NCBI GenBank assembly: GCA_000002435.2 | Contig: CM018792.1 | From: Giardia intestinalis | Lineage: Eukaryota | DNA length: 64,000 bases | Direction: 5' to 3' (one strand) | Part shown: positions 590 through 33,685 of the stretch, piece by piece | Position numbering within the stretch: the first letter of the stretch is position 1 | How the letters are laid out: each line of letters opens with the position of its first letter | The notes under the pieces: model-generated | What the model was told of the DNA's origin: nothing | The model's input: the letters and a program-made list of their open reading frames with translations, nothing else | Database searches by the model: none | Translations under genes and position numbers: made by a program

Positions 590-740
590 TCAATTTTTTA
601 ACACGTTAAGATGTTTGCCTTTGTGCGGGTCGCCAATAGTGCCATTGCACATGTAAGACCATACGGAGACATTAGCTATGTCGGAAGAGAGAAAAGCAGT
701 AGAGGCAAAAGTTTTATTTGCGACAAGAAGGCAGATCAAG
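590..740 (-). pseudogene. 3' portion of a small secreted Cys-containing protein gene that is split by the GC-rich insertion (...LICLLVANKTFASTAFLSSDIANVSVWSYMCNGTIGDPHKGKHLNVLKN*)
   Basis: This is the same frame as the 5' portion at 4915-5091. The frame is continuous through the 10-bp direct repeat. Track ORF 590..778 continues the same frame with its N-terminus inside the island. Confidence 0.4.
731..740. repeat. Left copy of the 10-bp direct repeat GCAGATCAAG (putative target-site duplication)
   Basis: An exact 10-mer is also present at 4915-4924. Both copies coincide with the points where GC content jumps. Confidence 0.6.
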
Positions 741-875
741 CGTCCTGAGGGATCCTCTGTCGTCTCCACCTGCTTCACGCCGTGCTCCGGTGGGCTGGCA
801 CTCTGCGGTCGGCTCGAGCGCCTGCGGGCCTAGGTAGTAAATTGCCATCAGCGGGTCCTGCTCGCGGCCGCAGAC

Positions 876-2450
876 CTATTGCCTGGGAGCGGGGAGCTCC
901 ACGTCGCGGCCCTCGAGCCCGGGGGGCACGCGGTCGAGGACGGCGACAGATACGCCGCTCACGCCCTCCTCGCGCAGCGCGCTGGCCAGGCGCTTCCTGA
1001 ACCACTTGGCGGAGCTGGCCTCCTTGCCCTCCCGGTACTTGAAGCAGAAGTAGAGGGTCCCCCCGCCCCCCTCGTCCTGCACGACCCGGCTCAGCAGGTT
1101 CCACCACAGCAGCGGGCGGTCCTCGCCGCACCAGAAGCCCTCGCGCCGCCCGAGATCTCGGTAGGCCTCGGGCAGGTGGGCGACCTCCACGACGGGGCCC
1201 TGGGCCGCCTCTGCAGGGCCCCCGGCGCCGCACCAGACGTCCCCGGGGTCGAGGGCCGCGAGGCCGGAGCAGTCGCCGGGCACGCGCCCCTGGACGGCCC
1301 GGATCCCGACGCCCCGGTCGCGGGCCCTTCTGCAGGCCTCGGCGAACTTCTGCAGGGGCGCGGCGTGCCTGAAGCCGATGTACATCACGTACTCCCCGGC
1401 CTCCTCGCCGTGCAGGACGCGGTCCGGGGGCGTCTTCCCCTTCAGGACCCCCAGCCCCCGGAAGCCGGCCCCCCGGTACGCGTCGGGGATGCCTGTGAGC
1501 CGCACGACGCAGGCCGGGTCGCCGAAGGGCGCGCCCGCCCGGACCTTGGTCCTCGTGGTCCCGTCGTCGGTGTTGAGCACGACGCGCCGCTGGGCCCTCT
1601 TGATGGGCGGCTCGTCTGGAGGCTCTCCCGTCCCATCGGAGGAGCCGGAGAGCTCGACGTCGCTCACGGCGGGCGTCCCATCCACGCGCTCCGACAGCGT
1701 GCGGAGGTCGCGCCCGGGGGCCTCTGCGTATGCGTAGACGCTGCTGCGCCGGAGGGCCGGCCCCACGAGGAAGTTCCGCTGGCAGACGGAGTAGGCGCAG
1801 AGGCACGCGGCGTGGGCGGTGGGGAAGCGGGCCGCATAGCCCCGCAGCGCCCGCGCGCCCTCCCCGAGGACGAACTCGGAGAGGGAGACGCCCTCGGCGA
1901 AGACCGCGAGGTCTGCCAGCAGGCCGTCCCCGGACCCGGGGGCGCGGGGCACGACCCAGAGCGTGCCGTGGGCCTCGTGGGACTGCGGGAGGGACGAGAG
2001 GGCGCCGAGGCTGCTGAGCGAGACCTCGACCAGGGAGCCCGCGATGGCGCCCGCGGCCGGCAGGGGGGTGCGCGGCGGCTCGCAGGCCGGCTTCTCTGCA
2101 TCCCCACCGGGCCCGTACCGCTCGAGCAGCCGGCGCTCCCTCGGGTCGAGCGGGCGGCTCCCCCGGGCCTCGGCCTCCCGGCGGCCCCTCGCCACGCCGT
2201 CCCCCAGCGCCGCGGCCCGCCCCTCCTCGACGCACAGGCTCCTCTGGATGGTGTCGGCCAGGACGTCCGGGTCCCCCGTGAGCTCCAGGGTGCGGGCCGC
2301 CAGCCCGAAGAACGCCAGAAAGGTCCTCTGCTCGAGGCGCACGTTCACACTCAGCATGCATTTACGGACCCGGGCGGCGTACAGCGCGTGCGCCCCGTCC
2401 CCTGGCACGGCCGGCGGGGAGAGGGCGGCACCGGCGGGGCCCGCGGACAT
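876..2450 (-). CDS. Island ORF B, hypothetical protein, 524 aa, no recognisable domain
   Basis: ATG start. It is the long open frame in the only frame/strand combination with strong period-3 signal: position-3 G/C above 90%, position 2 mixed. Amino-acid composition is balanced, unlike the overlapping RGP-rich frame 775..2361. It starts 12 nt after the stop of ORF A on the same strand. Confidence 0.5.
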   Translation of the reverse strand: MSAGPAGAALSPPAVPGDGAHALYAARVRKCMLSVNVRLEQRTFLAFFGLAARTLELTGDPDVLADTIQRSLCVEEGRAAALGDGVARGRREAEARGSRPLDPRERRLLERYGPGGDAEKPACEPPRTPLPAAGAIAGSLVEVSLSSLGALSSLPQSHEAHGTLWVVPRAPGSGDGLLADLAVFAEGVSLSEFVLGEGARALRGYAARFPTAHAACLCAYSVCQRNFLVGPALRRSSVYAYAEAPGRDLRTLSERVDGTPAVSDVELSGSSDGTGEPPDEPPIKRAQRRVVLNTDDGTTRTKVRAGAPFGDPACVVRLTGIPDAYRGAGFRGLGVLKGKTPPDRVLHGEEAGEYVMYIGFRHAAPLQKFAEACRRARDRGVGIRAVQGRVPGDCSGLAALDPGDVWCGAGGPAEAAQGPVVEVAHLPEAYRDLGRREGFWCGEDRPLLWWNLLSRVVQDEGGGGTLYFCFKYREGKEASSAKWFRKRLASALREEGVSGVSVAVLDRVPPGLEGRDVELPAPRQ

Positions 2451-2462
2451 TTTAAGGAGGGC

Positions 2463-4781
2463 CTATGCCCCCAGAATGCCGCACTTCATGGCCAGCGACG
2501 CGTGCGGGAACTCGTCCCCGTCGGCGACCACGCGGTGGTTCGTCACCGTCGCGACCCCGAACGGGACGAGGTCCGACGTGATGACCTGGCCGTTGCTCCG
2601 CAGCCGGACCAGGCAGGACAGCCCGGAGGCGCCGAACGCCCCCGCGCAGATCTGCGCCCACTTGGCCGCGTCGCTGACGGGGAGGCAGACGTCCGGGAGC
2701 CCGACGGCCCGGAACCCGTTCGCCAGCAGGACGTGGATGAGGGGCTCCTCCCTGTTCGCGCTGTCTCGCAGGGTGAACGCACCGTTCAGGCTGCAGAGGC
2801 TGTGCTCCAGCAGGCCGCAGACAGAGGCGATCCGCTCCCGCGAGATCGGGAGGGCCAGGTAGAGCGGGCCGGCGGGCGGGGCGCTGGCCAGCTCGGAGAG
2901 CGAGCGGATGTCCGCCAGCCGGCCCTGGGCCCTCCTCGGCGCAGAGGGGTCGGGGGGCGTCTGCGCCGCGAGCCGGAGGTAGTCCAGCAGCCCCAGCTCC
3001 GCGACGGACGAAAAGTAGTACTGGAGGCGCAGGAGCCGGCAGCCGAGCACGAACCTCCGCGCAGCGCGGGGCGCCGCCAGGAGCCGCCGGAGGAGGTGGC
3101 CGTAGAAGGCAGAGCCGTCGTCGCAGTAGAGCCCCGGCGCCCTGCCGGAGGCGAGCAGCAGGGGGCTCCGCCTCGAGGGGAGGATCTTCTCGGCGCGCGG
3201 GGCGGGGAGCCTCTGGAGGTGCGGCACCGCGGAGAGAGAGGCGACGAAGCAGCCGCCCTCGACGTCATCGGCCAGGAGGTTGACGACGCAGAGGGGCCTC
3301 CCCGTGGCGGCGCAGAACTGCTGCAGCGCAAGGCAGCCGGAGCCCGGGTCTGCGGAGAGCACCTGGGACGAGGCGTCGAGGTGGAGCCGCGGCACGTAGA
3401 GCGGCCTGCCGCACCGTTGGCACGCCCTCCCGCGAGAGACGGGCTCCGAAGAAGGCTCCGCGCCGCCCTGGCCGTCCTCTGCCTGTCTGCCGGTGTGTCC
3501 GGGCGGGTCCGGGGCCGCGCTGTAGAGCACGTTGAAGGCCGAAACCGCCGGCCTGTGCTCCAGGAGGAGCGTGCAGGGGGAGCCCGCGCAGGTGCAGTAG
3601 GCGACGTCCAGGGGCGTGTGGGCGGCGCGGGCCCTGAAGAGCTGCCGCCTGTGCTCGGGAAGCAGCGCGGCGACGGTGTCGTCCAGCAGCCGGGCCAGCG
3701 GGTACGGGCCGAGGTAGGCGATCCTGAAGTCGGCGCAGCAGAGGTTGCTCAGGACCAGGTTCACGAACCGCGCGCCCTCCCTGCGGTAGACGTTGAGGAG
3801 CCGCGAGGCCGCCCGGTGCTGCTCCTCCGTGTAGCGCAGCACGCAGTACCTGCAGGCGGCCTGGCCTCCCGGGGGCCGGATGCCCTGCGAGGCCGGCTCC
3901 AGCCTCAGGTAGTGGCCCGCAACGACGTCCTGCTCCAGCGCGCGGAGGTGCGAGCGCAGGTCCTGCTCGGACGCGAAGGAGAGCAGCGTGGCGCCGAGGC
4001 CCGCGGGGGCGGGGGGAGCAAGGGCGTCTGCGAGCCCCGGCGCCGGACTGCCCCCGTACTCGGCCTGGAGGTCGCGGAAGGCGCCCGGGAGAGGAGGGGG
4101 CTGCAGGGGGCTCGACGGCCGGGCGGCGGGCAGGCTACGGGGCGGCGCGAGCTGCGAGAGGGAGCAGAGAAGGTGGTGGATCTCCTGGGAGACGAGGTCC
4201 CTCACCGCGGCCACGGTCCCGGGGCGGAGGCCGCGGAGGTGGCCCTCGACGCTGGCGAGGAAGCTCCGGGCCAGGTTGTTCGCGGCGCCGTACAGCCCCC
4301 CGCCCAATGCCCCGGCCGCGAAGAGCAGGGAGACGGCGTACGAGTGGGGCCCCGGGCTGTGCTGCAGGTGCTCGGAGAGGGGAAACGCCCGGGCGGCGCC
4401 GACGTCAAAGTTGTGCACCTCGTTGAAGAGGAACTCGTTCACGCGGTCGTGCACGGACGGGGCCCTGGAGGGCGGGGCGGGCCCCAGCAGGCGCGGCCGG
4501 GCCGGGCGGGGGAGCGAGCACAGGGTTCCGACGTAGACGCTGCCGGCCGCCCCCGTGGCCCCGAGCTCCTTCACCCGCCAGAGCCCGGGGCGCGCGCTCC
4601 CCGCCAGCGCGAGCTCGTCGTCGAAGGCGAGCTTGATGGCCTGGGCCGTCTTGCGCAGGTCCTCCTCGGCCAGGCGGCGGCTGCGGCTCACCCAGCACCA
4701 GACCGGGACGGGGACCGCCGAGACGCTTATGGAGAGCTGGACCTCCTCGACAAGGCCGGTGTCGATGAACGCATAGCGCAT
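2463..4781 (-). CDS. Island ORF A, hypothetical protein, 772 aa, Ala/Arg/Leu/Pro/Gly-rich, no recognisable domain
   Basis: ATG start. The first ~80 codons, translated by hand, show almost exclusively G/C at position 3 with A/T common at position 2. The frame is open for 772 codons. The 1376-aa plus-strand ORF 879..5009 is its antisense shadow, with its GC-rich position at codon position 1. Confidence 0.5.
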   Translation of the reverse strand: MRYAFIDTGLVEEVQLSISVSAVPVPVWCWVSRSRRLAEEDLRKTAQAIKLAFDDELALAGSARPGLWRVKELGATGAAGSVYVGTLCSLPRPARPRLLGPAPPSRAPSVHDRVNEFLFNEVHNFDVGAARAFPLSEHLQHSPGPHSYAVSLLFAAGALGGGLYGAANNLARSFLASVEGHLRGLRPGTVAAVRDLVSQEIHHLLCSLSQLAPPRSLPAARPSSPLQPPPLPGAFRDLQAEYGGSPAPGLADALAPPAPAGLGATLLSFASEQDLRSHLRALEQDVVAGHYLRLEPASQGIRPPGGQAACRYCVLRYTEEQHRAASRLLNVYRREGARFVNLVLSNLCCADFRIAYLGPYPLARLLDDTVAALLPEHRRQLFRARAAHTPLDVAYCTCAGSPCTLLLEHRPAVSAFNVLYSAAPDPPGHTGRQAEDGQGGAEPSSEPVSRGRACQRCGRPLYVPRLHLDASSQVLSADPGSGCLALQQFCAATGRPLCVVNLLADDVEGGCFVASLSAVPHLQRLPAPRAEKILPSRRSPLLLASGRAPGLYCDDGSAFYGHLLRRLLAAPRAARRFVLGCRLLRLQYYFSSVAELGLLDYLRLAAQTPPDPSAPRRAQGRLADIRSLSELASAPPAGPLYLALPISRERIASVCGLLEHSLCSLNGAFTLRDSANREEPLIHVLLANGFRAVGLPDVCLPVSDAAKWAQICAGAFGASGLSCLVRLRSNGQVITSDLVPFGVATVTNHRVVADGDEFPHASLAMKCGILGA

Positions 4782-4914
4782 GCCCGCGGCCGCCGAAGTA
4801 TTTTATGGAAAGCTCCCGGGCCGGCCGGGCTCCCGGGCGGGCGGTGTGGGCAGGCTGCCTTTCTATCCGCTAGCTGGAGCGCACCCAGAGGCGCCGCAGC
4901 AAGACAGCGCGGAT

Positions 4915-4924
4915 GCAGATCAAG
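4915..4924. repeat. Right copy of the 10-bp direct repeat GCAGATCAAG (putative TSD)
   Basis: Identical to 731-740. It sits immediately outside the GC-rich block. Confidence 0.6.
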
Positions 4925-5091
4925 TCGTTCACTGTGGAAGGACACCGAGAATAGTGCTCAACGCAGTGTGTATCTGAGTTCCTGTCGCACTTCTTTGTAT
5001 CAGTGTTGAGGGTGTAGCCCGGGAAGCATGTGTCCTTCCCGCTGTCCTTTGCCAGCACGGTTGCACAAACTAGGAGAAATCCTACCAACAT
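4915..5091 (-). pseudogene. 5' portion of the disrupted small secreted Cys-containing protein gene (MLVGFLLVCATVLAKDSGKDTCFPGYTLNTDTKKCDRNSDTHCVEHYSRCPSTVNDLIC...)
   Basis: ATG at 5089-5091. A signal-peptide-like hydrophobic N-terminus is followed by a Cys-spaced segment. The frame runs into the island and stops after 14 codons (track ORF 4870..5397). The upstream extension of the track ORF is probably non-coding. Confidence 0.4.
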
Positions 5092-5759
5092 TAGCCGGAG
5101 TACACGTGCCACTGCTCTTCCGTCAGGCTGATGTGTTGCCGCGAGCAGTGAGAGACAGCCGCTCTTGCTCTCCTTGACCAGTTGTACTAGAGAAGAACGA
5201 GATAAGAGCACACCCACCGGAGGCCAGCTGATGGCACGATTCCCCCTGGCTTCGATAGGAACAGGATGAGTGGGGGTCAGATTCAGACCGTGCCTCTCTT
5301 GTGGAGTGATTGTTTGGGATGCATTCCTATACATTGCTGTCGCTGTGCTCGTCGGCTTCCTCTGCAGAGGCAGGCATCTCGGTAATAAACGCGTCATTGG
5401 TGAGTTCTACTGATAGCGCCTAGATGTCATTAGTCCACGAATGTCCTGTTAATCATCCCAGAGAGCATGCCCTAAAATGTGACTTGCTTGGGCTCTGGCA
5501 GAATTGTGAATAAGCCAACTTAAACGTGTAAGTTTGTGCTATTGAAATTAGGAAAGAAGCGGTTCTCTTTCTCTAGCGAAGGACTAATAGAGAGCAAACC
5601 TCTAACTCTGCATATTGACAAAAGATTAAGAGTGATTCATAGCCTCGAAGATCAAAGCAAATGCCACAGTAGATACAATCTGATAATTTACTTTGCTATA
5701 CAAACTATCAATAGTTGGAGTACTAAATTCTACAAAAAGTGAAGGAGTACAGCACGAGA

Positions 5760-6725
5760 TTAGGCCTCCTGATCAACTGGAAGAGCACTATCTGCTGGTT
5801 GCTCATTAGCTGACTCGATCTGAGACTGGTTACTAACATCTTCCAATTGCTCCCTAGGTATCTGGGGCTTATCTGCATCGACCTGGGGAGGATGGCTAGT
5901 CGTGACTGGACATGAATTTTCAGGGGATCTGGGGGATTCAAGGCCTCCTTCAGCCTGCATTAGAGGATCCGGAAGAGAGGCCACATACGCTGCAAATGCC
6001 TCCATAATGGATACTGACTTGTCAGACTTGGCACGTTGATCAAGCGCAGCAGAAAGGCTGCTTACCTCTGCGTTGAGCTTGATGAAGTAGTCACCCATGC
6101 AACTGGTTAACTCGGCAATGAGGCTCATTGTAGTCCAGTCGATCTTCTCGAGGCTCGCGTGCTGATTAGCCATATGTTCCTTGTATGCTGTCTCGTCCAC
6201 CTCCCAAGAGCGCTTCAACTTCTGCATTTTAGCTGTTGTTTGCGATATTGCTTTAACCATCTTGTTTCCGCTAGAGCCTAGTTTCATATTCAAGATATCA
6301 AAGTCCAAATCATCGTACTGGCGCTTCTTCAAAAGGATTCCTTGTCGTTCCTTGTCAAGCTTTGTCATGCACCCACTCACAGTACGAAATGGCTTAACAA
6401 CACGCTCCTGAAAGCTCTGAGCGAGGTTGGCTACCGTAGAAACCAAGCCAGTATTGAGCGTGTTGACCGCTGAGATGAAGTCCTCGAGACTCTTAACATA
6501 GGGAGCACACTCAAAAGGTAAGAGATCCGGGCTTGGTGGGTTGCGCGACTTCAGGAGGGCCTTCTGCAGGTTCTTGGCAAACCCTTGGCCGATGACTCTC
6601 AAGTGTACAGAGAGCTTCTGGATCCACTCGAAGTTGTCGATGAGCTCATCAATACGTATCATCTCTGCGCGCTCGTAGAGGCGCACCTTGTTGGAGAAGT
6701 CGAAGTCAGGTTTAACCACGTCCAT
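5760..6725 (-). CDS. Hypothetical protein, possible BAR-domain (amphiphysin/Rvs-like) protein, 321 aa
   Basis: Track ORF 5760..6749 starts at TTG, so I trimmed it to the first ATG (MDVVKPDF...). It is predicted helical and coiled along its length. The C-terminus is acidic and low-complexity. Confidence 0.55.
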   Translation of the reverse strand: MDVVKPDFDFSNKVRLYERAEMIRIDELIDNFEWIQKLSVHLRVIGQGFAKNLQKALLKSRNPPSPDLLPFECAPYVKSLEDFISAVNTLNTGLVSTVANLAQSFQERVVKPFRTVSGCMTKLDKERQGILLKKRQYDDLDFDILNMKLGSSGNKMVKAISQTTAKMQKLKRSWEVDETAYKEHMANQHASLEKIDWTTMSLIAELTSCMGDYFIKLNAEVSSLSAALDQRAKSDKSVSIMEAFAAYVASLPDPLMQAEGGLESPRSPENSCPVTTSHPPQVDADKPQIPREQLEDVSNQSQIESANEQPADSALPVDQEA

Positions 6726-7624: not shown

Positions 7625-9562
7625 TCAGCTTGGATACTTTTCATTGAGCTTCTTCTGTGCCTCCCACTCCTTCACCAACTTCTTGTATCGGCTTTTTGGT
7701 ATGGGCAAAGGATTACCGTCAGGCCCCGTCTCGGCCAAGTGAGTGGGAATCCCACGCTCATCAAAAGCTGAGAACTCCACGTTCTCTAGAAACATCTTCT
7801 CGGCTGGAATTAGGGCCTTTTCGCGCTCTAAACGCTGCTTCTCAAGCTTTTCCTGCTGCACCTTCTCTTGTTGAAGCCTTTTGGCTTCTGCTAAATCCAG
7901 TTCTCTTTGGCGTTGGACCTTCCACTCCTCAACGTTTATCGGCTTAATATAAGACTCCTTGTCTGCATCTTCGATAGCAAATCCTGTCAATGGTAGGTGC
8001 TCATCTCTGAGCCTGTCACACAACCCTAGAAGCATCTTCTTTAGAGTCTTGGTATCTGTCTCAGCAGTATTAGTGGTTGAGGCCATCAATAGATCCTTTA
8101 TTTCTCTCCTGAAGTTACAGACGACTCTAGCGACTTGCAAGGCGTTTTCTGCCGTTGAAGTTTCACCTCTTGCATACGAGAAACCCATAATTGAGAGGAC
8201 ATGTACAATTTTATCCCGTGCATTAGATAGGAGAAACGTGCTGACCTGCCTGCCTTCTGTCTGGCATGCAAAGATGTATGCCTTGCAGTTATCGATCAAC
8301 AACATCACATGACTCATAGCGGAAACAATGTTTATATCGTTGCGGAAGGCCGTATCCACGTTGGAGAGGAACTCTATGGTCTGCGCTTCAAGAGCCTCTT
8401 CCGTTGTACTGTATCTAAGGTTCTTGATTGGCTCAGAAAGCTCTTCCTCGTGCTGAATGATCTGGCGACAATTGGACAGGAAACTGGTGATTTTTTTGTC
8501 CTTGGCAACTGCAGCATCCATCATCGAGATGCTGTAATCCAGCGACGCGCTGTATGGAACCATGCAAAAAAGCATGCGAACTTGGTTTGCCGTAAAGATG
8601 CTAAGAATCTCACGCACGGTTTTAAAGTTCTTTTTAGACTTTGACATAACATCCCCTGCTATCTTCAAGTGCCCACTGTGCAGGAAGCATCCTATCATGT
8701 TCTTTTTCCCGGCCCAGGTCTCCAACTGGATCAGCTCATTGTCGTGGTGAGGGAATTGTAGGTCACAGCCACCCAAGTGGAGATCAAACGCCCCTCCAGT
8801 GTCCTTCCCTAACACAGCTGCCGCCATCGCGGAGCACTCTATGTGCCAGCCAGGCCGTCCGGGCAGGGTGATCAGTTCCGAGACAGCGCCATTTTTGTGG
8901 GAAAAGGTTGCATCCCACTTGGCATCCTCTGGTTCTGTTTCTTTCCATGCCTTCCAGAGTGCGAAATCTGAGGCTGAGCGCTTTTCTGAGACGCGATTCT
9001 TGCTGTCCATCCCATCTGCATTCTGGATCAGGAGCTGGAGCTCGTCAGAACTACTGCCCAGAGGCCGAAGCTTGGGATAGGAGTACCCAGCGCTGCGGGC
9101 TGCGGCCACGTCAAAGTAAACAGACCCCGCGCTCACATATGCAAATCCGTTGTCCATGATCTTCTGGATGAAGAGAATGATGTCGGCCATGTACTCGGTT
9201 ACGCGAGTGACCACTGTGAAGGGACGAACTGAGAGGGTGTGCATGTCGGAAAGGAACTCCTGCTCGTATTTACGGCAGATGTCGAAGATGGACGAGCCCC
9301 TCTCTACGGCGCGGGCGATGATCTTATCGTCGACGTCCGTGATGTTGCACTGGTAGCGAACGCGCAGCCCGAAGTAGTCCTCGAGGATGCGGCGGACGAC
9401 GTCGAAGGTGACGTATGTGCGCGCGTGGCCCAGGTGGGTCGAGTCGTAGACCGTGGGGCCGCAGATGTAGGCCAGGACTGTGCTGGGTGCGTGGGTCCTG
9501 AGCTCCTCGAGGCGCCCGGTGAGGCTGTTGGTGAGCCAGACGGAGGTCGGGAACGCGGCCAT
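7625..9562 (-). CDS. CysRS: Cysteinyl-tRNA synthetase (class I; HIGH motif HLGHAR, KMSKS motif KMSKSKKN)
   Basis: 645-aa ORF with ATG start, full-length class-I aaRS architecture and a GC-rich 5' end. Confidence 0.93.
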
Positions 9563-9581
9563 TTATCGGCGCCGGGCGGAG

Positions 9582-9587
9582 GCAAAA
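9582..9587 (-). terminator. T-run (TTTTT on the minus strand) directly after the tRNA-Cys 3' end; probable Pol III terminator
   Basis: The plus strand reads AAAAA at 9584-9588, immediately 3' of the tRNA discriminator base. Confidence 0.4.
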
Positions 9588-9659
9588 AGGGCCTGACCGG
9601 ATTTGAACCGATGACCACTCGGACTGCAGCCGAGCGCTCTACCCCTGAGCTACAGACCC
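9588..9659 (-). tRNA. tRNA-Cys: tRNA-Cys (anticodon GCA)
   Basis: Minus-strand sequence GGGTCTGTAGCTCAGGGGTAGAGCGCTCGGCTGCAGTCCGAGTGGTCATCGGTTCAAATCCGGTCAGGCCCT folds as a cloverleaf. The 7-bp acceptor stem has one G-U pair. The D stem is GCTC/GAGC, the anticodon stem CTCGG/CCGAG with loop CTGCAGT, and the T arm ATCGG-TTCAAAT-CCGGT. The discriminator is U. Confidence 0.9.
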
Positions 9660-9722
9660 CTGCTGCGAGCCGGAAGGGATGAACATGCATCCTCGTGTAG
9701 CTTTGTGGCTCTTCCGAAAGCA

Positions 9723-10151
9723 ATGGCGTTCCAGACCCTCGACGCGATCAACGAGCTGGCCGCGCAGGCCGCCCGGGTGGCCGGTCCGGCGCAGCCCCCG
9801 CCGAAGGCCCCGCAGCTCGCAAGCCGGGCCTGCGACACCCCCGGGACGGCCGAGGAGACAGACAACGAGGACCTCGACGACGTCCCGGCCGGCGAGCTCG
9901 AATGCAAGGTGTACAGCGAGGAGCATCGGAAGGCCGTTCGGAAAGAGATACAGCGGACCATCAAGAGCGGGATCGTCATCACCATCATCAGCGTCGTCAT
10001 GGTCCTCGTCCTCACCTGGTTCATTGTAAGTAGATTCCCGCTGGTCCTGGTCATCGTCTGGGCCTCTATGACCGCCGTCCTCACGATCCTTGGTGTGGCT
10101 GCCTGGATATGGGTCTGTGCACGGTTCAAAAAGGCACGTGCAGAGACATAG
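9723..10151 (+). CDS. Small hypothetical membrane protein (two TM helices, Ala/Pro-rich acidic N-terminus), 142 aa
   Basis: Track ORF 9705 starts at GTG, so I trimmed it to the first ATG (MAFQTLDAINEL...). TM segments are IVITIISVVMVLVLTWFIV and LVLVIVWASMTAVLTILGVAAWIWV. The overlapping minus ORF 9650..10246 looks non-coding. Confidence 0.5.
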   Translation: MAFQTLDAINELAAQAARVAGPAQPPPKAPQLASRACDTPGTAEETDNEDLDDVPAGELECKVYSEEHRKAVRKEIQRTIKSGIVITIISVVMVLVLTWFIVSRFPLVLVIVWASMTAVLTILGVAAWIWVCARFKKARAET

Positions 10152-10290
10152 CCTGGCGCGCTCTTATGGAAATAGAAACAGTTCGGCAAGTAAACAGTTG
10201 TTAGCAAGGCATGTATGTTCATGGTTCCATCGGGTAAACAGGGCATGTAGTGTACACGTTCTTAAAAGCTAATTCTCGAGTGCCTTGTTT

Positions 10291-11496
10291 ATGACCGAAT
10301 GCCTGGAGAGTAATGAATACTGTATTTGCACGCCAACAGCAGATAATAGCGTAGTTATATGTAAGTGCAAGGAGGGATATGTTAGTAGAGACAACCAGTG
10401 CTACAGCAAAGAATGTTATGACAGTCTCACAGACAGCTTTTGTGGAAACTTAGGCTTTGCTACATGCGATAATAGTGCACAGAAGTGTAACTGTGGCAAT
10501 ACAGGCCTTACTCTAATGTCCTTTCATGGGCGATGCGTAACAGAGAATTGTTTAATTGGAAAAGAGCCTAGCCGGACTGAGTGTTGGAATAGAGGGTACT
10601 GTCAAATTAACTTAGCTGGAGGGATATGTCGTTGTTACTCTGCATACTTAAACGACACTGGGTGTACTAAGTGCAATCCAGAAACATCCCTGGAGAAGAA
10701 GGTATCAAATGGAGTTGAGTGCATTCCAAAAACGTGCATGGATAAGGAGAATCCTAGCGTCGATCTTGTATGTAATAACATCGGAACGTGTACTCCCTTT
10801 GTCAACTCAGAGTCAACCATGCTGTACATATGTAAGTGCAATAGCCATGCTTTCAGTGTAGGAGACTCATGCTATCCAAAGGAGTGTGTGATTACAGACC
10901 CTCTTGTCTCCAACAGCCTCACTGTCTGCAACTCAAAGGGATCTTGCGATTTCAAAACAAGTAGATGCAACTGCATCGCACCTTACACAGGAAGATTCTG
11001 CCGGTCTTGCTTACCGGAATATATCCACCAATATATTGCAACCGAGAACGGCTTTCTCTTTCTCTGCGTCCACGAGAACTGCTGGGATGAGTCGCTTAAT
11101 ACGCACTGCAGTGGTCACGGGAACTGTACAATGGATGCCGTGTCTAAGGTCTATAAGTGCTCATGTGAGCAAGGATACAATCTTGTGAAGGGCACGTACA
11201 ACATTTGTGCGTCAAACACCGTCCGTAAGCGTAATCGGCAAGGCTACCTTCTGCTGTCTGACGTCTTGTTTGTCGCGCTCTTTGCCGTGGCCATTCTTGG
11301 AATAGGTGTATATCTCCTTGTGAAGCTTTTGTCTGAAAAGAAGGCCAAGCGAGACCATGAGCTTTACATCCATCAAGAGAAGATCACAATAGCAAGGAAT
11401 CTCCATAATGATTTGTCATCAGCTAAGCAGGCGTCTGCTCAATCTAGCGTCCTTTCCACTGCCGAGTACATAGCTTTTCAGCGAAGGTACATGTAG
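10291..11496 (+). CDS. High-cysteine membrane protein (EGF-like/CXC repeats, C-terminal TM plus short basic tail) that lacks a signal peptide
   Basis: Trimmed from a TTG start to the ATG at 10291. It has over 50 Cys in CxC/CxxC/GxC spacings and the TM segment LLLSDVLFVALFAVAILGIGVYLLV. An in-frame stop lies 21 nt upstream, so no N-terminal extension is possible. Confidence 0.7.
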   Translation: MTECLESNEYCICTPTADNSVVICKCKEGYVSRDNQCYSKECYDSLTDSFCGNLGFATCDNSAQKCNCGNTGLTLMSFHGRCVTENCLIGKEPSRTECWNRGYCQINLAGGICRCYSAYLNDTGCTKCNPETSLEKKVSNGVECIPKTCMDKENPSVDLVCNNIGTCTPFVNSESTMLYICKCNSHAFSVGDSCYPKECVITDPLVSNSLTVCNSKGSCDFKTSRCNCIAPYTGRFCRSCLPEYIHQYIATENGFLFLCVHENCWDESLNTHCSGHGNCTMDAVSKVYKCSCEQGYNLVKGTYNICASNTVRKRNRQGYLLLSDVLFVALFAVAILGIGVYLLVKLLSEKKAKRDHELYIHQEKITIARNLHNDLSSAKQASAQSSVLSTAEYIAFQRRYM

Positions 11497-11636
11497 TGCT
11501 CACACTGTATGTCAGCACCTCTGTTAGGTTCTTCCTGTTTCAGTTTAGTTAGTAAATTAATATGCCTTCAGCGTCTGTACAGCTTGCACAGTGGATTTCT
11601 TATCCTTGGCCAAGTCTCAATTAAATCAATAAGCTC

Positions 11637-12743
11637 ATGGGCATAGTTGAGCAAATAGCTGAGGTAAAGACTGAGATGGCACGTACCCAAAAGAACAAGG
11701 CCACAGAGCATCATCTAGGACGCCTGAAGGCCAAGCTTGCGCGACTGGAGAGTCAGCTCATCAGCGAGGTCACAAAGAAATCTGGAGGAAAGGGGTCTGG
11801 ATTTGATGTTGTTAAGCAGGGACAAGCTAGAATTGCACTCGTTGGGTTCCCATCTGTGGGGAAAAGCACCTTTCTCACGCGGTATACCAACGCGGAGTCT
11901 GCATCAGCAGCCTATGAATTCACCACTCTTACCTGTGTTCCAGGCACGATGGAGATAAATGGAGCGCCAATACAGATTCTTGACCTCCCAGGAATCATCG
12001 AGGGGGCCGCCACGGGCCTAGGGAAAGGACGACAGGTGATTGCAACCGCTAGAACAGCAGACGCCATAATAATGATGCTTAGCGCATGCAACGCAGTCAA
12101 GGAGAGGCGGATCCTTACAAAGGAGCTAGAGTCTATGGGAATCCGTCTGAACAAACGCCGACCAAGCATTGAACTACGCCCAGCCTCAATGGGGGGTATA
12201 CAGGTGCTTTCGGACAATGTATTGACCGTCCTAGATCACGACACAATACGGGCCACTCTTGCAGAGTATAAAATCCACAACTGTCAGGTGCTTCTCCACT
12301 GCGATGCAACCGTCGATGACCTAATTGACGTAGTAGAGGGCAACAGAGTTTATATGCCGTGTATCTACGCTATCAACAAAATTGACATGGTAAGTATTCC
12401 CGCTGCCGAGTACTATGCAAAGCAGCCGGACACCGTTGTTATTTCAGCAGAGTGCGATCTCAATGTCGATTACCTGAAGCGAATTATCTGGCAGCGGCTG
12501 CAGTTAGTACGCATCTATACCAAGAAGCGGAACTGTCCGGCAGATCTTAGTCAAAAGGAAGCGGTTTTTCTCAAACAAGGAGATACAGTCGAGAAGCTTT
12601 GTGCAAATATTCACAATGATATGGTATCCAATTTTTCGTATGCAATGGTGTGGGGTAGAAGTGCCCAACACTGTCCTCAGCGAGTCGGAAAAGACCACAA
12701 GCTAGCCGACGAAGACGTTGTCCAGATAGTTTTGAGAAAATAG
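11637..12743 (+). CDS. DRG: Developmentally regulated GTP-binding protein (DRG/Obg family GTPase with C-terminal TGS domain)
   Basis: Motifs GFPSVGKST (G1), DLPG (G3) and NKID (G4), with a DRG-type N-terminus MGIVEQI...TQKNKATEHHLG. Confidence 0.93.
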   Translation: MGIVEQIAEVKTEMARTQKNKATEHHLGRLKAKLARLESQLISEVTKKSGGKGSGFDVVKQGQARIALVGFPSVGKSTFLTRYTNAESASAAYEFTTLTCVPGTMEINGAPIQILDLPGIIEGAATGLGKGRQVIATARTADAIIMMLSACNAVKERRILTKELESMGIRLNKRRPSIELRPASMGGIQVLSDNVLTVLDHDTIRATLAEYKIHNCQVLLHCDATVDDLIDVVEGNRVYMPCIYAINKIDMVSIPAAEYYAKQPDTVVISAECDLNVDYLKRIIWQRLQLVRIYTKKRNCPADLSQKEAVFLKQGDTVEKLCANIHNDMVSNFSYAMVWGRSAQHCPQRVGKDHKLADEDVVQIVLRK

Positions 12744-12799
12744 CATAAGCAGGATCAACCAGAACGCCCACGGCTCCCTTCTGCTCCTGGTGACGCACT

Positions 12800-12806
12800 A
12801 TTTACT
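12800..12806 (-). promoter_or_regulatory. AGTAAAT (Giardia-type AGTRAAY polyadenylation signal) overlapping the EB1 stop codon
   Basis: The minus strand reads ...CAGTAAATAG with TAA as the stop codon. In Giardia this signal commonly overlaps the stop. Confidence 0.35.
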
Positions 12807-13518
12807 GATGATACTCCGCATACAGAATATCCTCTATCTTCTTCACGACACTCTTAATGTAGAACGGAGAGTCTTCTGGCTCTGCAATCTCCACTTGTGT
12901 CATAAGTTCGTTCATTTGATCCATATATATCTCTATTTCATGCAACTTATCAAAGTAAAATTGTGACTCTAGCTGACCCTTTGCAATTTGACGACGTAAG
13001 TCCTCAAGCTCCTTAGAGTCAATTGAGGGCCCGGACGTGCTTGAGGCCTTGGGGTTCTGCATGGATGCAGCGGTGCTGCCTGACCTATTTCCTGGTTTTG
13101 ATGTTTTAGTAACAGCGTTGGCAGATCCAGATTCTGTAGCACCAGACTTGGATCCCTTGTAATTTTGGTCAAAGAACCACTTGAACCATTGGAAGAACTC
13201 GAAGTTGTCCATGTACTTCCCTGTGACTAGCTTATTGACGTCAATGCCCTTATCTATATTGTTACGACTCAAAACGTCCTGTATGATCTTAAAATTTTCT
13301 GACCTTTCCCACTCGTTGATAGCATTCATGCGAACACGATGCATGTTCACCTGTCCCGGATAAACAAGATTCAGGGCCATACAATAGTGGTGTCCCGATG
13401 CCAGGTCCTCAACTTTCTTGACAGGCTCATTAAGCAATTCTGATATCCACTTGAGCAAGGAGACGCGGCCTACAAAGTAGCAGTCAGACACATTTCCGGG
13501 TGCTTTTACCGGCGGCAT
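12802..13518 (-). CDS. EB1: EB1 microtubule plus-end binding protein (CH domain plus EB1 C-terminal domain)
   Basis: Trimmed to the ATG at 13516-13518. DNFEFFQWFKWFFDQNY and the C-terminal FYFDKLHEIEIY match conserved EB1 signatures. Confidence 0.9.
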   Translation of the reverse strand: MPPVKAPGNVSDCYFVGRVSLLKWISELLNEPVKKVEDLASGHHYCMALNLVYPGQVNMHRVRMNAINEWERSENFKIIQDVLSRNNIDKGIDVNKLVTGKYMDNFEFFQWFKWFFDQNYKGSKSGATESGSANAVTKTSKPGNRSGSTAASMQNPKASSTSGPSIDSKELEDLRRQIAKGQLESQFYFDKLHEIEIYMDQMNELMTQVEIAEPEDSPFYIKSVVKKIEDILYAEYHQ

Positions 13519-13576
13519 CAAGCGTGAATTTAAATTTTGAGCTTTTACTTACGTTTCTACCCAACTTAGCTCACGC

Positions 13577-14005
13577 ATGCAAGACACAAGGGCTATAATG
13601 GAAAGTATCACTCAGTTTGCTCTAGACTTGGAAGCCTTTTTTAGGCCCGAAGAGGAGCGCATTGTCACATGCTTTCATACGCCCATCAACGAAGACCATG
13701 ATTGTGGTACAGATGGCAGGGGATCACCTGCTACGTTGGCTGCAGCATTTCATGTACGCAAGAACTACTATGAAGACGGTATGATTTCGTCTTCTCCGTC
13801 TCCAGTCAGTGTCCATTCCTACCTGGAGGCGCACGATTGGAGCAGTGAAACTGACTCGCATGATGACAAGAGAGGTAGAGAGTATGACCAAGAGTCAGAG
13901 GACGGATCTACCGCCGGCACACTAGCCAGTGCGCACTCTTCTCTATTGCTGTCATCGCCAGTAACACCGGACAGGTCTGCTGGAAGTGACAGCGATGTAT
14001 GGTAG
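13577..14005 (+). CDS. Hypothetical acidic Ser-rich protein, 142 aa
   Basis: ATG start 55 bp from the EB1 start (divergent). No similarity recognised. Confidence 0.4.
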   Translation: MQDTRAIMESITQFALDLEAFFRPEEERIVTCFHTPINEDHDCGTDGRGSPATLAAAFHVRKNYYEDGMISSSPSPVSVHSYLEAHDWSSETDSHDDKRGREYDQESEDGSTAGTLASAHSSLLLSSPVTPDRSAGSDSDVW

Positions 14006-20001: not shown

Positions 20002-21105
20002 ATGTATAATGCCAATCCAAAGCCTTCACAGCAGGGTGGAGCCCGCGAAAGCAGAGATTCTAGGGATGTGCGACAGCAGTATATCTTCCTCAACATCATC
20101 GGAAGCGGCTCCTTCGGGAAGGTCCACAAGGTCCAGTCCAGGACGAACGGGCGGATCTTCGCGTGCAAGGAAATCGACTACGCCAAGATGAGCGAGAAGG
20201 AGAAGAAGCTCCTCGTCCACGAGGTCAACACGCTCAAGGAGCTCAGCCACGAGAACATCGTCTCCTACATCGACCGCTTTGTCGAGCGCGAGAACGCGAA
20301 GATGTTCATCGTCATGGAGTACTGCGAGAATGGAGACCTCGCAAAGTACATCAAGCGGCACAAGACAGACAGGCGCTACATCGCTGAGGAGAAGATCTGG
20401 TCTGTCTTTGTCCAGCTCCTCCATGCCCTTAACTATTGCCATAGCATCCATAGTGAAGACGAGTCAGGTGTCCACAAAGTTATCCACCGGGATATAAAGC
20501 CCGGTAACGTGTTCCTCACTCAAGATGGCTCCATCAAGCTGGGAGACTTTGGTCTCTGCCGTACCCTCGGAGAAGATTCTGTGGCCCAGACAAACGTCGG
20601 CACCCCCCTCTACATGGCCATAGAGGTCCTCCAGAAGCAGTCCTACACAGAGAAGGCAGACATATGGTCCCTCGGCTGCGTCATCTACGAGCTCTGTGCC
20701 CTGCAGCCCCCATTCGTGGCATCTAACATAGAGTCCCTCAAGACGAAGGTTAAGCAGGGTGCACGCCCTGCCATACCGTCTCACTACTCTAGCGATTTGT
20801 CAGCTGCAATCGACTTAATGCTCAACCCCAATCCTTCAGCACGACCATCTGCAACAGATATCCTTCAGCACAGTCGTATCATTGAGATGAATGAGAGAAT
20901 AAAAGCTATGCCTGCATATGCTGCACAGGCGCCGCCTGAAATACCAAAGAGTGCTCCACCAGGCGGTGGACATGCCCAACGTGAACGTGAACTTCGTGAG
21001 TGGGAAGAACGCCTGAACACGAAGGAGCAGTCCCTACGAGCACGTGAGGAGCACGTTGACCGCACACTAGCAGCTCTGAACGCCGGAACATATAAAGGCT
21101 ATTAA
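20002..21105 (+). CDS. NEK: NEK-family serine/threonine protein kinase
   Basis: GSGSFGKVHKV, HRDIKPGNVFL, DFGLCR and a C-terminal coiled-coil tail. It is NIMA-like in the ordering of its conserved features. Confidence 0.88.
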   Translation: MYNANPKPSQQGGARESRDSRDVRQQYIFLNIIGSGSFGKVHKVQSRTNGRIFACKEIDYAKMSEKEKKLLVHEVNTLKELSHENIVSYIDRFVERENAKMFIVMEYCENGDLAKYIKRHKTDRRYIAEEKIWSVFVQLLHALNYCHSIHSEDESGVHKVIHRDIKPGNVFLTQDGSIKLGDFGLCRTLGEDSVAQTNVGTPLYMAIEVLQKQSYTEKADIWSLGCVIYELCALQPPFVASNIESLKTKVKQGARPAIPSHYSSDLSAAIDLMLNPNPSARPSATDILQHSRIIEMNERIKAMPAYAAQAPPEIPKSAPPGGGHAQRERELREWEERLNTKEQSLRAREEHVDRTLAALNAGTYKGY

Positions 21106-30493: not shown

Positions 30494-31105
30494 ATGATTA
30501 ATTTGAGGGTAGAAGAGATCTATGAGCGGCTTGCCTCCGTAATGGCCGCTCTGCCGCTGCATGTGGCCGTGCGCCCCCATGGGATAAGTAAGCATATGCT
30601 CCTCGAACGTTTCGAGAACAACAGAAAGGCTGACAGCGAGCTTTTCAAGAAGCAAGAGCAGACACAGCCAGCGTTCACGGAAGAGGCCTCAGATGATACC
30701 TCGTCCAGTGCCTCTCCTGAAAGTGACACCGACGACATCCAGGCAGCTAATCTTGGCGCAGTTGGGAGCGAAAAAGTCCAGATACTCGACGGCATCCCCC
30801 GGTCCCGCAAGGCTGCTGATAAGCGTGCTTTGAAGGAGGCCATTGCAGCTAAGAAGGAACGGGAACAGGCGATTGCTGCGGCCGCTAAGGGAGACCGGGC
30901 CGCGATGGACAGCGTCGTTGACAAAGAGTACGACGTGGCAATGCGGCGGGCGTCTGGTAAAAAGGTGCGCGACGACCCCGCGCGGATTCGTAAGTCGATG
31001 AGGAACAATCAAGGCAGGCGGCCCCGGGGGAAAGCAGCTTCAAAGCCCCAGAAGCCGAAGTTCCCCATGAAGTCCCAGGCGGGGTTCGGAAGAGGCCCGA
31101 AGTGA
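30494..31105 (+). CDS. Hypothetical basic protein, Lys/Arg-rich C-terminus (nucleolar or rRNA-processing-like)
   Basis: ATG start 20 bp after the RFC1 stop. Acidic Ser-rich centre and basic tail. Confidence 0.55.
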   Translation: MINLRVEEIYERLASVMAALPLHVAVRPHGISKHMLLERFENNRKADSELFKKQEQTQPAFTEEASDDTSSSASPESDTDDIQAANLGAVGSEKVQILDGIPRSRKAADKRALKEAIAAKKEREQAIAAAAKGDRAAMDSVVDKEYDVAMRRASGKKVRDDPARIRKSMRNNQGRRPRGKAASKPQKPKFPMKSQAGFGRGPK

Positions 31106-31124
31106 GACGTAAATGCTGATCGAT

Positions 31125-31487
31125 TTACTTCGCATGCCCCTTGCCGGCGGTCTGCTTGGCCGTCTTAGCTGTCTGAGCGGCGATTTCCCTCAGAGCCTGG
31201 TTCTCTTCATTGAGGAACGACTCCAAGATGTGAGCACGGAGCGCAGACCCGCAGAGCTTGCCGCCGTAGGGACGCGAGACTTTTCGCTGCTGGCGCGTGA
31301 GGTGCTGGGGGATCACACGGGGAATGCCGTGGATCTGTTTGCCGGTCTCTGCGCAATGGGGGGCATTCGGCAGCTTCTTAACGCGGAGGGACGTCAGCCT
31401 GTTCCCGGGAGTGCGCTTGTAACGCACGATCTTCGAGCGAGTCCTGTATGTGGAGTGGAAGCGGCAAGTGACGCGACAGTCGGCCAT
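31125..31487 (-). CDS. RPL34: 60S ribosomal protein L34e
   Basis: YRTRSKIVRYKRTPGNRL...PYGGKLCGSALRAHI matches L34e. Convergent, 19 bp from the previous gene. Confidence 0.9.
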   Translation of the reverse strand: MADCRVTCRFHSTYRTRSKIVRYKRTPGNRLTSLRVKKLPNAPHCAETGKQIHGIPRVIPQHLTRQQRKVSRPYGGKLCGSALRAHILESFLNEENQALREIAAQTAKTAKQTAGKGHAK

Positions 31488-31699
31488 CTCGGGCGGGCAG
31501 CTCTTTAGTAATTAAAAGCCAATTTAAAATTCTTTCTATTTTTAAAACGAGAATGTATCGAGCGAGCCTCGGAGGAACCAGAGAGGGGTAGTGATAGCGG
31601 AGACCGTGTCCCGGCCAGCGTGCAAGCGAGCCTTTGTGTACGATAACAGAGAAAATTATATCTTACAATGACGTCAAATCGCGATTTAAACGAAATAAA

Positions 31700-32404: not shown

Positions 32405-32454
32405 ATGTAAACGTTTACTGCGGGTCTAGTAGATTTGTTCCAGGACCTGTAAGG

Positions 32455-33240: not shown

Positions 33241-33685
33241 ACGCACCTTTCTCATGGTGAAGCCGGACGGTGTCCAGCGCGGCCTCGTCGGCGAGATAAT
33301 CTCCCGCTTCGAGCGCAGGGGCTTCAAGCTGGTCGCCATGAAGTTCTTTGTGCCTTCGAAGAACCTTGTCGAGGAGCACTACAAGGAGCACGCCGCCAGG
33401 CCTTTCTTCGCCGGGCTCTGCAAGTTCTTGTCCAGCGGCCCCGTCTGCGCCATGGTCTGGGAGGGCGCCAATGTGGTGAGCATATCCCGCACCATGATGG
33501 GGGTCACGAAGCCGGCCGAGTCTGCTCCCGGCACGATACGCGGGGACTTCGGCATTGACGTCGGGAGGAACATCATTCACGGCTCTGCCAATCTCGATGA
33601 TGCGGCGCGTGAGATAGCTCTCTGGTTCAAGCCAGAGGAGGTGGCCTCGTGGAGCTGCTCTCTCGAGAGCCACATCTATGAGTGA
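33230..33685 (+). CDS. NDK: Nucleoside diphosphate kinase
   Basis: [23 protein letters not shown]...NIIHGS with the active-site His. High GC3. The antisense ORF 33224..33754 is a shadow. Confidence 0.95.

Follow-up and report, generated by a model that had tools for sequence, protein, structure and literature searches.

Does the position of a tRNA-Cys(GCA) gene directly upstream of the gene for its own synthetase, CysRS, and in the same orientation (both on the minus strand), mean that the two genes are regulated together in Giardia duodenalis, or is it a by-product of compaction and rearrangement? The reference genome carries annotations for both genes, which are standard components of it; a literature search for linkage of CysRS and tRNA-Cys in Giardia, or for adjacency of cognate tRNA and synthetase genes, yielded nothing relevant. 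The sequence-only reading of the 64,000-nt stretch analysed here (the window) had called such adjacency uncommon, and indeed it is expected a priori in only about 0.5-2% of cases per Giardia-sized genome: with 63 tRNAs and 5,901 genes as inputs, chance adjacency of a cognate pair amounts to 2.1% per genome if the tRNA may lie on either side, and to 0.5% if it has to be upstream and co-oriented. With a prior this low, coincidence is not a comfortable explanation if one genome is considered by itself. The tRNA-Cys gene is the only tRNA gene in the window. The elements of the locus are as follows:

7625..9562, minus strand: CysRS coding sequence, 645 aa (GL50803_5867), from ORF, translation, Pfam and identity
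9563..9583, minus strand: 21-nt spacer separating the T-run from the CysRS ATG, presumed site of the Pol II start
9584..9588, minus strand: T5 run resembling a Pol III terminator (discriminator plus four trailer Ts), read from the sequence
9588..9659, minus strand: tRNA-Cys(GCA) gene, 72 nt, from ARAGORN and Rfam RF00005
9660..9722, no strand: 63-nt spacer separating the tRNA 5' end from the divergent ATG, from the comparison of four lineages
9723..10151, plus strand: divergent gene, 142 aa, ORF for a predicted membrane protein of unknown function
9301..10000, no strand: GC island, 65.3% GC, with the intergenic region that contains the tRNA at its centre

ARAGORN placed the tRNA-Cys at 9587-9660(-) with the anticodon gca, and Rfam returned an RF00005 match at 9588-9659(-) with 64.7 bits (gathering score 29, E = 8.7e-12), which exceeds the curated threshold and covers model positions 1-71 of 71, i.e., the full length. 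The acceptor stem has 7 bp and every stem is intact. The main identity elements recognized by CysRS are the anticodon GCA and the discriminator U73; both are present, U73 being the T at 9588 directly 3' of the CAGGCCC acceptor strand. The gene has the structure of a nuclear-type tRNA gene, with A-box-like (TAGCTCAGGGGTAG) and B-box-like (GGTTCAAATCC) sequences, no encoded CCA and a T-run in the trailer (TTTTGCC); it also lacks an intron. Note that minimum free energy folding of the tRNA alone gave no cloverleaf, as is usual for single-sequence folding, and that the covariance model is the relevant test. All 72 of the 72 positions are invariant in four lineages of the G. duodenalis complex, whose CysRS genes share 76-83% nucleotide identity and whose tRNA flanks are heavily diverged. 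Such invariance amid diverged flanks identifies the tRNA-Cys, as judged from conservation, as a functional gene under purifying selection. A decaying pseudogene or tRNA-like relic, which would turn the adjacency into meaningless debris, is effectively refuted on the same grounds and retains hardly any probability: the full-length, high-scoring match, intact stems, correct GCA anticodon and U73 all speak against it, as does 100% conservation of the tRNA beside flanking sequence of which ~22% is invariant. An exact-match scan of metagenome contigs for a second, unlinked tRNA-Cys copy gave 0 hits, an uninformative outcome.

The downstream gene encodes a class I cysteinyl-tRNA synthetase, as judged from its catalytic domain, motifs and orthology. 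Residues 26-351 match Pfam tRNA-synt_1e (PF01406, 7.8e-89), the translation carries HLGH (HIGH-type) and VMSKS (KMSKS-type) motifs, and the protein is 99% identical to the annotated G. duodenalis CysRS, 56% to that of G. muris and 43% to those of Spironucleus and Hexamita. Its start codon is secure, because an in-frame TAA stop immediately precedes the ATG and conservation of the N-terminus extends to G. muris. Thus, the identities and coordinates proposed for both genes stand (ARAGORN, RF00005 with 64.7 bits, PF01406 with 7.8e-89, 99% identity). Linkage of tRNA and synthetase genes is typical of giant viruses and prokaryotes, and an origin from either was considered; it was rejected, given the 99% identity of CysRS to its G. 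duodenalis counterpart and the 100% identity of a neighbouring protein to GL50803_00112018. CysRS is normally expressed in four isolates according to published RNA-seq data, with FPKM values of 54.8 (WB), 125.7 (AS175), 75.8 (P15) and 147.8 (GS) (PMC3610916, supplement). On a scale with a median of 1.28 for the bottom 5% and of 1119 for the top 5%, these values are mid-range, and repression of the Pol II gene adjoining the tRNA is thus not seen in any of the four isolates.

Read along the minus strand, the junction runs ...GGTCAGGCCC, T, TTTT, GCCTCCGCCCGGCGCCGATAA, ATG. The first T of the T5 run is the discriminator U73, and the remaining four belong to the trailer. The gap had been put at 26 nt, which is close, though off by one to five: the distance to the ATG (9562-9560) is 25 nt from the discriminator and 21 nt from the end of the T-run. 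The proposed T5 Pol III terminator-like run is real and is kept as T4-T5 in four diverged lineages, at or no more than 2 nt from the discriminator in all four (no longer than T4 in L008), while the rest of the spacer has diverged in sequence and also in length (25, 15, 39 and 35 nt between tRNA and CysRS). The next run of at least four Ts on the minus strand lies 683 nt downstream. At its other end the spacer closes with GATAA, which together with the ATG makes an initiator-like ATAAATG. The AAATG at the CysRS start is invariant, with ATAAATG/GAAAATG conserved across the lineages; apart from the T-run, it is the only element conserved downstream of the tRNA. ATAAATG resembles the published consensus of Giardia transcription start sites, e.g., AAAATAAAATG (PMC3792122), and we infer for it a putative function as the Pol II initiator of CysRS.

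Giardia promoters occupy ~50-60 bp directly upstream of the ATG, and transcription starts 1-10 nt upstream of it (PMC12209930; PMC3610916). The 5' UTRs measure 1-14 nt, and ribosomes do not scan (PMC3610916). As only 25 nt are free at this locus, an overlap of the CysRS promoter with the tRNA gene or its terminator, as the sequence-only reading had proposed, is expected and fits this literature. Such overlap with an upstream gene is, however, routine in a genome this compact (the median intergenic gap within the window is 88 nt). What sets CysRS apart is composition: its upstream region ranks 3-4 from the bottom in A+T among 30 genes, with a fraction of 0.38 (rank 3) at -60..-11. With the upstream region A+T-poor and the usual AT-rich context missing, CysRS may depend on something that the tRNA gene supplies. 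Furthermore, neither TFIIIC nor C53 is detectable in Giardia, so that Pol III promoter architecture and the efficiency of termination at T4-T5 cannot be assumed from yeast or human.

On the other side of the tRNA, the 63-nt spacer has the same length in all four lineages, with 14 of its 63 positions invariant; among these are an ATG at -31..-29 relative to tRNA +1 and a TNCTTT beside the divergent start. The spacer would have to hold the initiator of the divergent gene (AAAGCAATG, plus strand) as well as any upstream Pol III element. The divergent gene has 142 aa in all lineages and a conserved N-terminus, MAFQTLDAINE; against Pfam, its product gave only a sub-threshold match to MgtE.

The pairing of tRNA-Cys and CysRS is present in all four lineages of the G. 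duodenalis complex, but all neighbouring genes are collinear within the complex, too. Outside it, neither ARAGORN nor Rfam found the tRNA in the ~6 kb around CysRS of G. muris (L001), of three other Giardia-like lineages of the comparison (L003, L004, L005), of Spironucleus (L006) or of Hexamita (L007). Conserved synteny, one of the checks proposed in the sequence-only reading, exists in the complex and is missing from these six loci; the linkage is confined to G. duodenalis-complex loci and does not reach beyond the range of general synteny. In G. muris and L005, the gene directly upstream of CysRS is EB1, with a gap of 17 nt in G. muris; as this spacer is so short, the promoter of CysRS in G. 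muris must fall within the coding sequence of EB1. Promoter overlap with an upstream gene is hence generic and no hint of shared regulation. In G. duodenalis, EB1 and CysRS are separated by the DRG gene, a 403-aa gene, the 142-aa gene and the tRNA. This block is not kept together in relatives, and the loci of the DRG GTPase in two of them (L014, L015) have other neighbours and no tRNA. The adjacency of EB1 and CysRS would accordingly seem to be the ancestral arrangement, the direction of the rearrangement being deduced from these gene orders. Segmental duplication was tried as the source of the two 142-aa genes that flank the inserted block and was rejected, as BLASTP gave no similarity (E = 25).

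We consider it quite likely that the locus consists of two independent, ordinary transcription units placed head-to-tail in a hyper-compact genome, and that their pairing is a chance, lineage-specific rearrangement with no selection on the linkage. Pol III would transcribe the tRNA-Cys(GCA) and stop at the T-run, whose first base is the discriminator, and Pol II would initiate the CysRS mRNA a few nucleotides 5' of the ATG, at the minimal AT-rich ATAAATG. The 50-60 bp promoter window of CysRS would then extend across the Pol III terminator into the 3' part of the tRNA gene, and little would be needed beyond the initiator and possibly the T-run. The pairing would have arisen in the G. duodenalis lineage, when three genes and the tRNA were placed between EB1 and CysRS, and would have been retained through the general stability of local gene order in the species complex rather than through selection on the linkage.

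Two other readings would give the adjacency a function. The tRNA gene, if constitutively occupied by Pol III and free of nucleosomes, might act as the effective upstream promoter or "opener" of CysRS, possibly also of the 142-aa gene, so that the output of CysRS would follow the transcription of tRNA-Cys in a parasite whose demand for cysteine is very high. This would account for an upstream region that lacks the AT-rich context (0.38) and yet supports an FPKM of 55-148, and the symmetric GC3 peak around the intergenic region (see below) suggests a special chromatin or recombination state. The arrangement is also kept in all four lineages of the G. duodenalis complex, but this retention is uninformative, because all the neighbours are collinear as well. 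As the linkage is missing from the G. muris locus and from five further diplomonad loci, at which CysRS functions beside other upstream neighbours, and as a spacer varying from 15 to 39 nt leaves no fixed geometry between tRNA and start, such an effect of shared chromatin appears unlikely. Still less probable, indeed very improbable, is a dicistronic transcript, in which Pol III, or a polymerase starting further upstream, would pass the T-run and RNase Z, cutting after U73, would free a CysRS mRNA with a 25-nt leader. The shortness of the terminator (T5 here, T4 in L008) and the lack of a back-up run of at least four Ts for 683 nt would make read-through easier. C53 belongs to the Pol III termination subcomplex in yeast, and its apparent absence from Giardia points the same way. 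Moreover, pervasive transcription has been documented in this organism (PMC3610916; PMC1885649). However, the T-run is the sole conserved feature of an otherwise freely drifting trailer, which argues that termination is selected, and the conserved initiator-like AAATG argues for a local Pol II start. The leaders of Giardia mRNAs, at 1-14 nt and used by non-scanning ribosomes (PMC3610916), do not suit this model either, and an uncapped 5'-monophosphate RNA with a leader of 15-39 nt would, on general grounds, be expected to be translated poorly.

We therefore find a functional coupling of tRNA-Cys and CysRS unsupported. Of the shared regulatory context or read-through suggested from the sequence, neither is borne out by a linkage absent in G. 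muris and five diplomonad loci and by a terminator and an initiator-like element conserved between the two genes. The sequence-only reading had itself said that a CysRS start downstream of the terminator at an independent AT-rich initiator, together with a lack of conserved synteny, would refute it; with a putative initiator at just this place and no wider synteny, the functional interpretation appears largely to fail by its own measure.

The remaining feature of the locus is its composition. A GC content of about 65% had been given for positions 9300-10000, and we measured 65.3% against a background of 48%; within the window, only the 701-4950 block is a stronger island. The enrichment arises at synonymous sites and is symmetric around the intergenic region: GC3 reaches 0.95 in codons 1-60 of CysRS and 0.96 in the first 45 codons of the 142-aa gene, and declines with distance from the intergenic region in either direction over ~400 bp. 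Similar islands without tRNAs occur elsewhere in the window. The peak is weaker in the sister lineages and absent at CysRS of G. muris, where there is no tRNA. Substitutions from W to S exceed those from S to W along the whole gene in the lineage of the window (29:7, 29:14, 105:55), and L009 shows the reverse; as no nucleotide-level outgroup is available, this skew is to be read mostly as lineage-wide shifts in composition. Giardia rDNA is very GC-rich, and rDNA was also considered for a 75% GC block; it was rejected, since the block has neither an Rfam match at the gathering threshold or at E <= 0.1 nor tandem repeats, and codon-position GC shows it to consist of two minus-strand protein genes.

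A tentative and rather doubtful interpretation of the island is that the tRNA-containing, nucleosome-free divergent intergenic region is a recurrent hotspot of recombination initiation or gene conversion, with the GC peak as a footprint of GC-biased gene conversion. In this scenario, the tRNA gene could also give open chromatin to the AT-poor CysRS promoter. If true, it would be evidence from sequence that homologous exchange is frequent in Giardia, an organism in which sexuality is under debate, and would make tRNA genes candidate markers of hotspots.

Compared with known systems, two independent units at this locus resemble the abutting units of compact protist genomes, where gaps measure tens of nucleotides and the promoter window lies inside the upstream gene. 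The AT-rich initiator-like element at the CysRS ATG is likewise in keeping with the short promoters of Giardia. Nevertheless, the region upstream of CysRS is much less AT-rich than usual, and what precedes CysRS here is a Pol III gene, so that two polymerases share ~100 bp. In yeast, tRNA genes affect neighbouring Pol II genes through tRNA gene-mediated silencing and as barriers, and here, too, a Pol III tRNA gene would lie less than 100 bp from a Pol II start. In contrast to yeast silencing, CysRS is not silenced (mid-range in four isolates), and TFIIIC is not detectable in Giardia. Plants possess dicistronic tRNA-snoRNA or tRNA-mRNA transcripts. Dicistronic tRNA-5S transcripts of Yarrowia are mentioned in PMC3369914. 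The Giardia pair shares with these the tRNA directly upstream of a co-oriented gene; but dicistronic units have no internal terminator, whereas here a conserved T-run (T4-T5 in all four lineages) separates the genes. Giant viruses and some bacteria cluster translation components, including tRNA genes with synthetase genes. The physical linkage of a cognate tRNA to its synthetase is similar, yet it concerns a single pair on a cellular eukaryotic chromosome (G. duodenalis WB) and is not kept in the sister species.

As it stands, the pairing matters little and is best read as a by-product of compaction and lineage-specific rearrangement; the sharply bounded synonymous GC islands may serve the question of recombination in Giardia better than the tRNA/synthetase pairing does. 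The locus does, however, offer a clean natural case in which a Pol III terminator and a putative Pol II initiator share ~25 bp. The transcription apparatus of Giardia is stripped down (no detectable TFIIIC, divergent TBP), and the locus could therefore be used to test the minimal size of a Giardia promoter and the influence of a Pol III unit on its neighbours.

In the entire 64-kb window, ARAGORN calls a sole tRNA, tRNA-Cys(GCA) at 9587-9660 on the minus strand. The Rfam tRNA model matches 9588-9659 on the same strand over its full length (64.7 bits; gathering score 29), and both programs thus bear out the identity and the canonical structure assigned from the sequence. The gene has a GCA anticodon and U73 (position 9588) as discriminator, does not encode CCA, and at the sequence level possesses everything expected of an ordinary nuclear tRNA-Cys. 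Downstream of it lies the gene of cysteinyl-tRNA synthetase (CysRS; GL50803_5867, PMC3610916 supplement).

9588-9659, minus strand: tRNA-Cys(GCA), canonical, 72 nt (ARAGORN and Rfam)
Minus-strand sequence GGGUCUG/CAGGCCC: acceptor stem of tRNA-Cys
TAGCTCAGGGGTAG, minus strand: A-box-like element of tRNA-Cys
GGTTCAAATCC, minus strand: B-box-like element of tRNA-Cys
9588-9584, minus strand: T5 run, its first T being the discriminator itself
7625-9562, minus strand: CysRS open reading frame, 645 aa
9723-10151, plus strand: gene of a 142-aa protein, divergent from tRNA-Cys

The synthetase shows all sequence-level features of a class I CysRS, with the class I catalytic domain (PF01406, E 7.8e-89) and the HLGH and VMSKS motifs read in the translation, and shares 99% identity with CysRS of Giardia duodenalis. 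Its start codon is secure, since conservation of the N-terminus extends to G. muris and an in-frame TAA directly precedes the ATG. An automated gene call in the G. duodenalis-complex locus L009 (753-2828) lengthens CysRS to 691 aa by reading through the tRNA gene, and the AS175 annotation (AS175_2532, PMC3610916 supplement; 1,890 nt) is shorter than those of WB, P15 and GS.

On the minus strand, the 3' strand of the acceptor stem is followed by T TTTT GCCTCCGCCCGGCGCCGATAA ATG. The discriminator is 25 nt and the end of the T-run 21 nt away from the CysRS ATG (9562-9560). The sequence-only reading had therefore located and described the pair correctly, except that its spacer of 26 bp is off by one to a few nucleotides and the strand was left unstated.

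Comparison with the CysRS loci of three other lineages of the G. duodenalis complex (L002, L008 and L009; CysRS 84-86% identical to that of the window in amino acids and 76-83% in nucleotides) separates constrained from free positions. In the alignment of the four lineages all 72 positions of the tRNA are invariant, whereas only 14 of 63 are in the 5' flank, and the 3' spacer differs between lineages even in its length. The tRNA is thus under strong purifying selection, which marks it as a working gene. Downstream of it only two features survive the divergence: a T-run at or adjoining the discriminator (T5, T5 after 'TC', T4 and T5) and AAATG at the CysRS start, present as ATAAATG or GAAAATG. 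The distance between discriminator and ATG is 25, 15, 39 and 35 nt, so the geometry is not fixed. Upstream, exactly 63 nt (9660-9722) separate the tRNA from the ATG of the 142-aa gene in all four lineages. The invariant positions of this flank form two clusters, one being the A-rich initiator AAAGCAATG (plus strand) beside the start of the 142-aa gene, the other lying at -37 to -20 of the tRNA and containing an invariant ATG at -31 to -29. The latter occupies the position expected for a TBP/BRF-type element and may be an upstream Pol III element, although with four sequences this is not statistically compelling. Such an element could be relevant in Giardia, in which TFIIIC, TFIIIA and B'' have not been detected (PMC3369914).

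The co-oriented tRNA-Cys(GCA) lies directly upstream of CysRS in all three of these loci and in those of four near-identical isolates (L010-L013). This says little about selection, as all neighbouring genes are collinear there too. Outside the complex we compared G. muris (L001), a second muris-like genome (L005), two more distant Giardia-like ones (L003, L004), Spironucleus salmonicida (L006) and Hexamita inflata (L007). In none of these six loci was a tRNA found within ~6 kb of CysRS, ARAGORN and Rfam (at gathering threshold) being in agreement. The linkage thus holds in all loci of the complex that we compared but in none of the six beyond it. In G. muris and L005 the order is L32e(-), a gene of ~1,110 aa(+), EB1(+), CysRS(+), with only 17 nt between the EB1 stop and the CysRS ATG of G. 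muris.

L001 (G. muris) 5255-6001 and L005 4650-5473: EB1 just upstream of CysRS
9562-13521 of the window: corresponding synteny break

L32e, EB1 and the large gene are retained in G. duodenalis, where three extra genes (for a DRG GTPase, a 403-aa Cys-rich protein and the 142-aa protein, a predicted membrane protein) and the tRNA separate EB1 from CysRS. As two lineages share the EB1-CysRS state, we infer an insertion in G. duodenalis rather than a loss elsewhere. The inserted block is not preserved as a unit: the DRG genes of two non-duodenalis relatives lie among completely different genes, with no tRNA close by. The simplest reading of these gene orders is that genes were rearranged in the stem lineage of G. 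duodenalis, which by chance put tRNA-Cys ahead of CysRS. Two genes for 142-aa proteins flank the block (13577-14005 and 9723-10151, both plus strand) and were considered as duplicates; their products are unrelated (BLASTP E = 25). The 403-aa protein (10291-11496, plus strand), separated from the pair by one gene, has 10% cysteine and weak EGF-like Pfam matches. Its proximity to a cysteine-decoding pair is probably a coincidence, as Giardia has many such genes.

Giardia promoters fall within the ~50-60 bp that precede the ATG, and transcription starts 1-10 nt before it (PMC12209930); the reported start-site consensus is AT-rich (e.g., AAAATAAAATG; PMC3792122). With only 15-39 nt free, a CysRS promoter of this nominal size must extend across the Pol III terminator into the T-arm and the 3' half of the acceptor, as the sequence-only reading had proposed. 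Overlap of this kind is nothing unusual here. Genes in the window are separated by a median of 88 nt, and in G. muris the CysRS promoter must fall within the coding region of EB1. Most economical is a model of two independent units, in which Pol III would stop in the T-run and Pol II would start CysRS at the conserved ATAAATG. Read-through from the tRNA into CysRS would be helped by the short terminator, after which no further run of at least four T occurs for 683 nt, and by the lack of a detectable C53 in Giardia (PMC3369914). However, the T-run and the local initiator are both conserved among the lineages, and Giardia needs very short leaders (1-14 nt; ribosomes do not scan, PMC3610916), making read-through highly improbable.

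Somewhat less remote, yet still unlikely, is that CysRS relies on an open chromatin state that the tRNA gene or the divergent promoter would create. In its favour, few of the 30 genes in the window have an upstream region poorer in AT than that of CysRS (AT 0.40 at -10 to -1, rank 4; 0.38 at -60 to -11, rank 3). Against the suggested shared regulation or read-through, the linkage is absent from the six loci outside the complex and not conserved beyond general synteny, and the conserved T-run lies between the genes. Nor is the neighbour repressed, as tRNA-mediated silencing would require: CysRS FPKM in four isolates (WB 54.8, AS175 125.7, P15 75.8, GS 147.8; PMC3610916 supplement) is mid-range for the transcriptome (bottom-5% median 1.28, top-5% median 1119). 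CysRS is thus not silenced by the tRNA gene that lies 25 nt away.

For the 63 tRNA and 5,901 protein genes of G. intestinalis (PMC3916229), chance alone would put at least one tRNA beside its cognate synthetase with a probability of ~2.1%; for a cognate tRNA upstream and co-oriented the figure is ~0.5%. These values are low for a single genome and unremarkable over many genomes and feature types scanned, and the pair does not recur independently to support them. Our literature search found no paper on this linkage in Giardia. The pair behaves as any abutting genes in a compact genome, differing from other such Giardia pairs only in using two different polymerases, and nothing in the linkage lies outside known biology.

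The surroundings are indeed GC-rich: 9301-10000 has 65.3% GC (background 48%; ~65% had been noted), the strongest island in the window except for the block at 701-4950. The effect resides in synonymous sites and is symmetric around the intergenic region, with GC3 falling from 0.95 (codons 1-60) to ~0.58 in CysRS and from 0.96 (codons 1-45) to 0.66 in the 142-aa gene. The gradient is also present, though weaker, in the three other lineages (strong in L008, weak in L002 and L009) and absent from G. muris CysRS.

701-4950: GC-rich block, sharply bounded, 4.25 kb, 73.6% GC (genome 48%)
876-2450 and 2463-4781, minus strand: its genes, 524 and 772 aa, GC1/2/3 ~0.75/0.55/0.95

These two adjoining genes (876-4781, GC3 0.95) form an island without a tRNA, and a gene at 20002-21105 (plus strand), also with no tRNA nearby, has an internal GC3 peak (0.72, 0.93, 0.60 and 0.42 along its length). 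High GC3 is therefore a regional phenomenon with no demonstrable tie to the tRNA. Milder patches (62-64% GC) occur at 30851-33600. The 701-4950 block is not rDNA, as it gave no Rfam match, and no tandem repeats were found in it. Its genes are joined in a manner typical of Giardia (TAG-GCCCTCCTTAAA-ATG). With 100% identity, the 772-aa protein corresponds to GL50803_00112018; taken with the 99% identity of CysRS, this assigns the window to G. duodenalis assemblage A, isolate WB or a strain nearly identical to it. The 772-aa protein has no Pfam domain, and the homologues found all belong to the G. duodenalis complex and are only 51-56% identical (CysRS, 84-86%), so this extremely GC-rich gene is also fast-evolving. 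Two public assemblies, a contig of isolate DH (L010) and a metagenome contig (L011), stop within the block.

GC3 mosaicism seems to characterise this chromosome at the regional level, and localised mutational bias and GC-biased gene conversion are hypotheses for it; a local hotspot of gene conversion or mutation would fit the peak at 9301-10000. These sharply bounded synonymous GC islands are a more promising lead than the tRNA/synthetase linkage.
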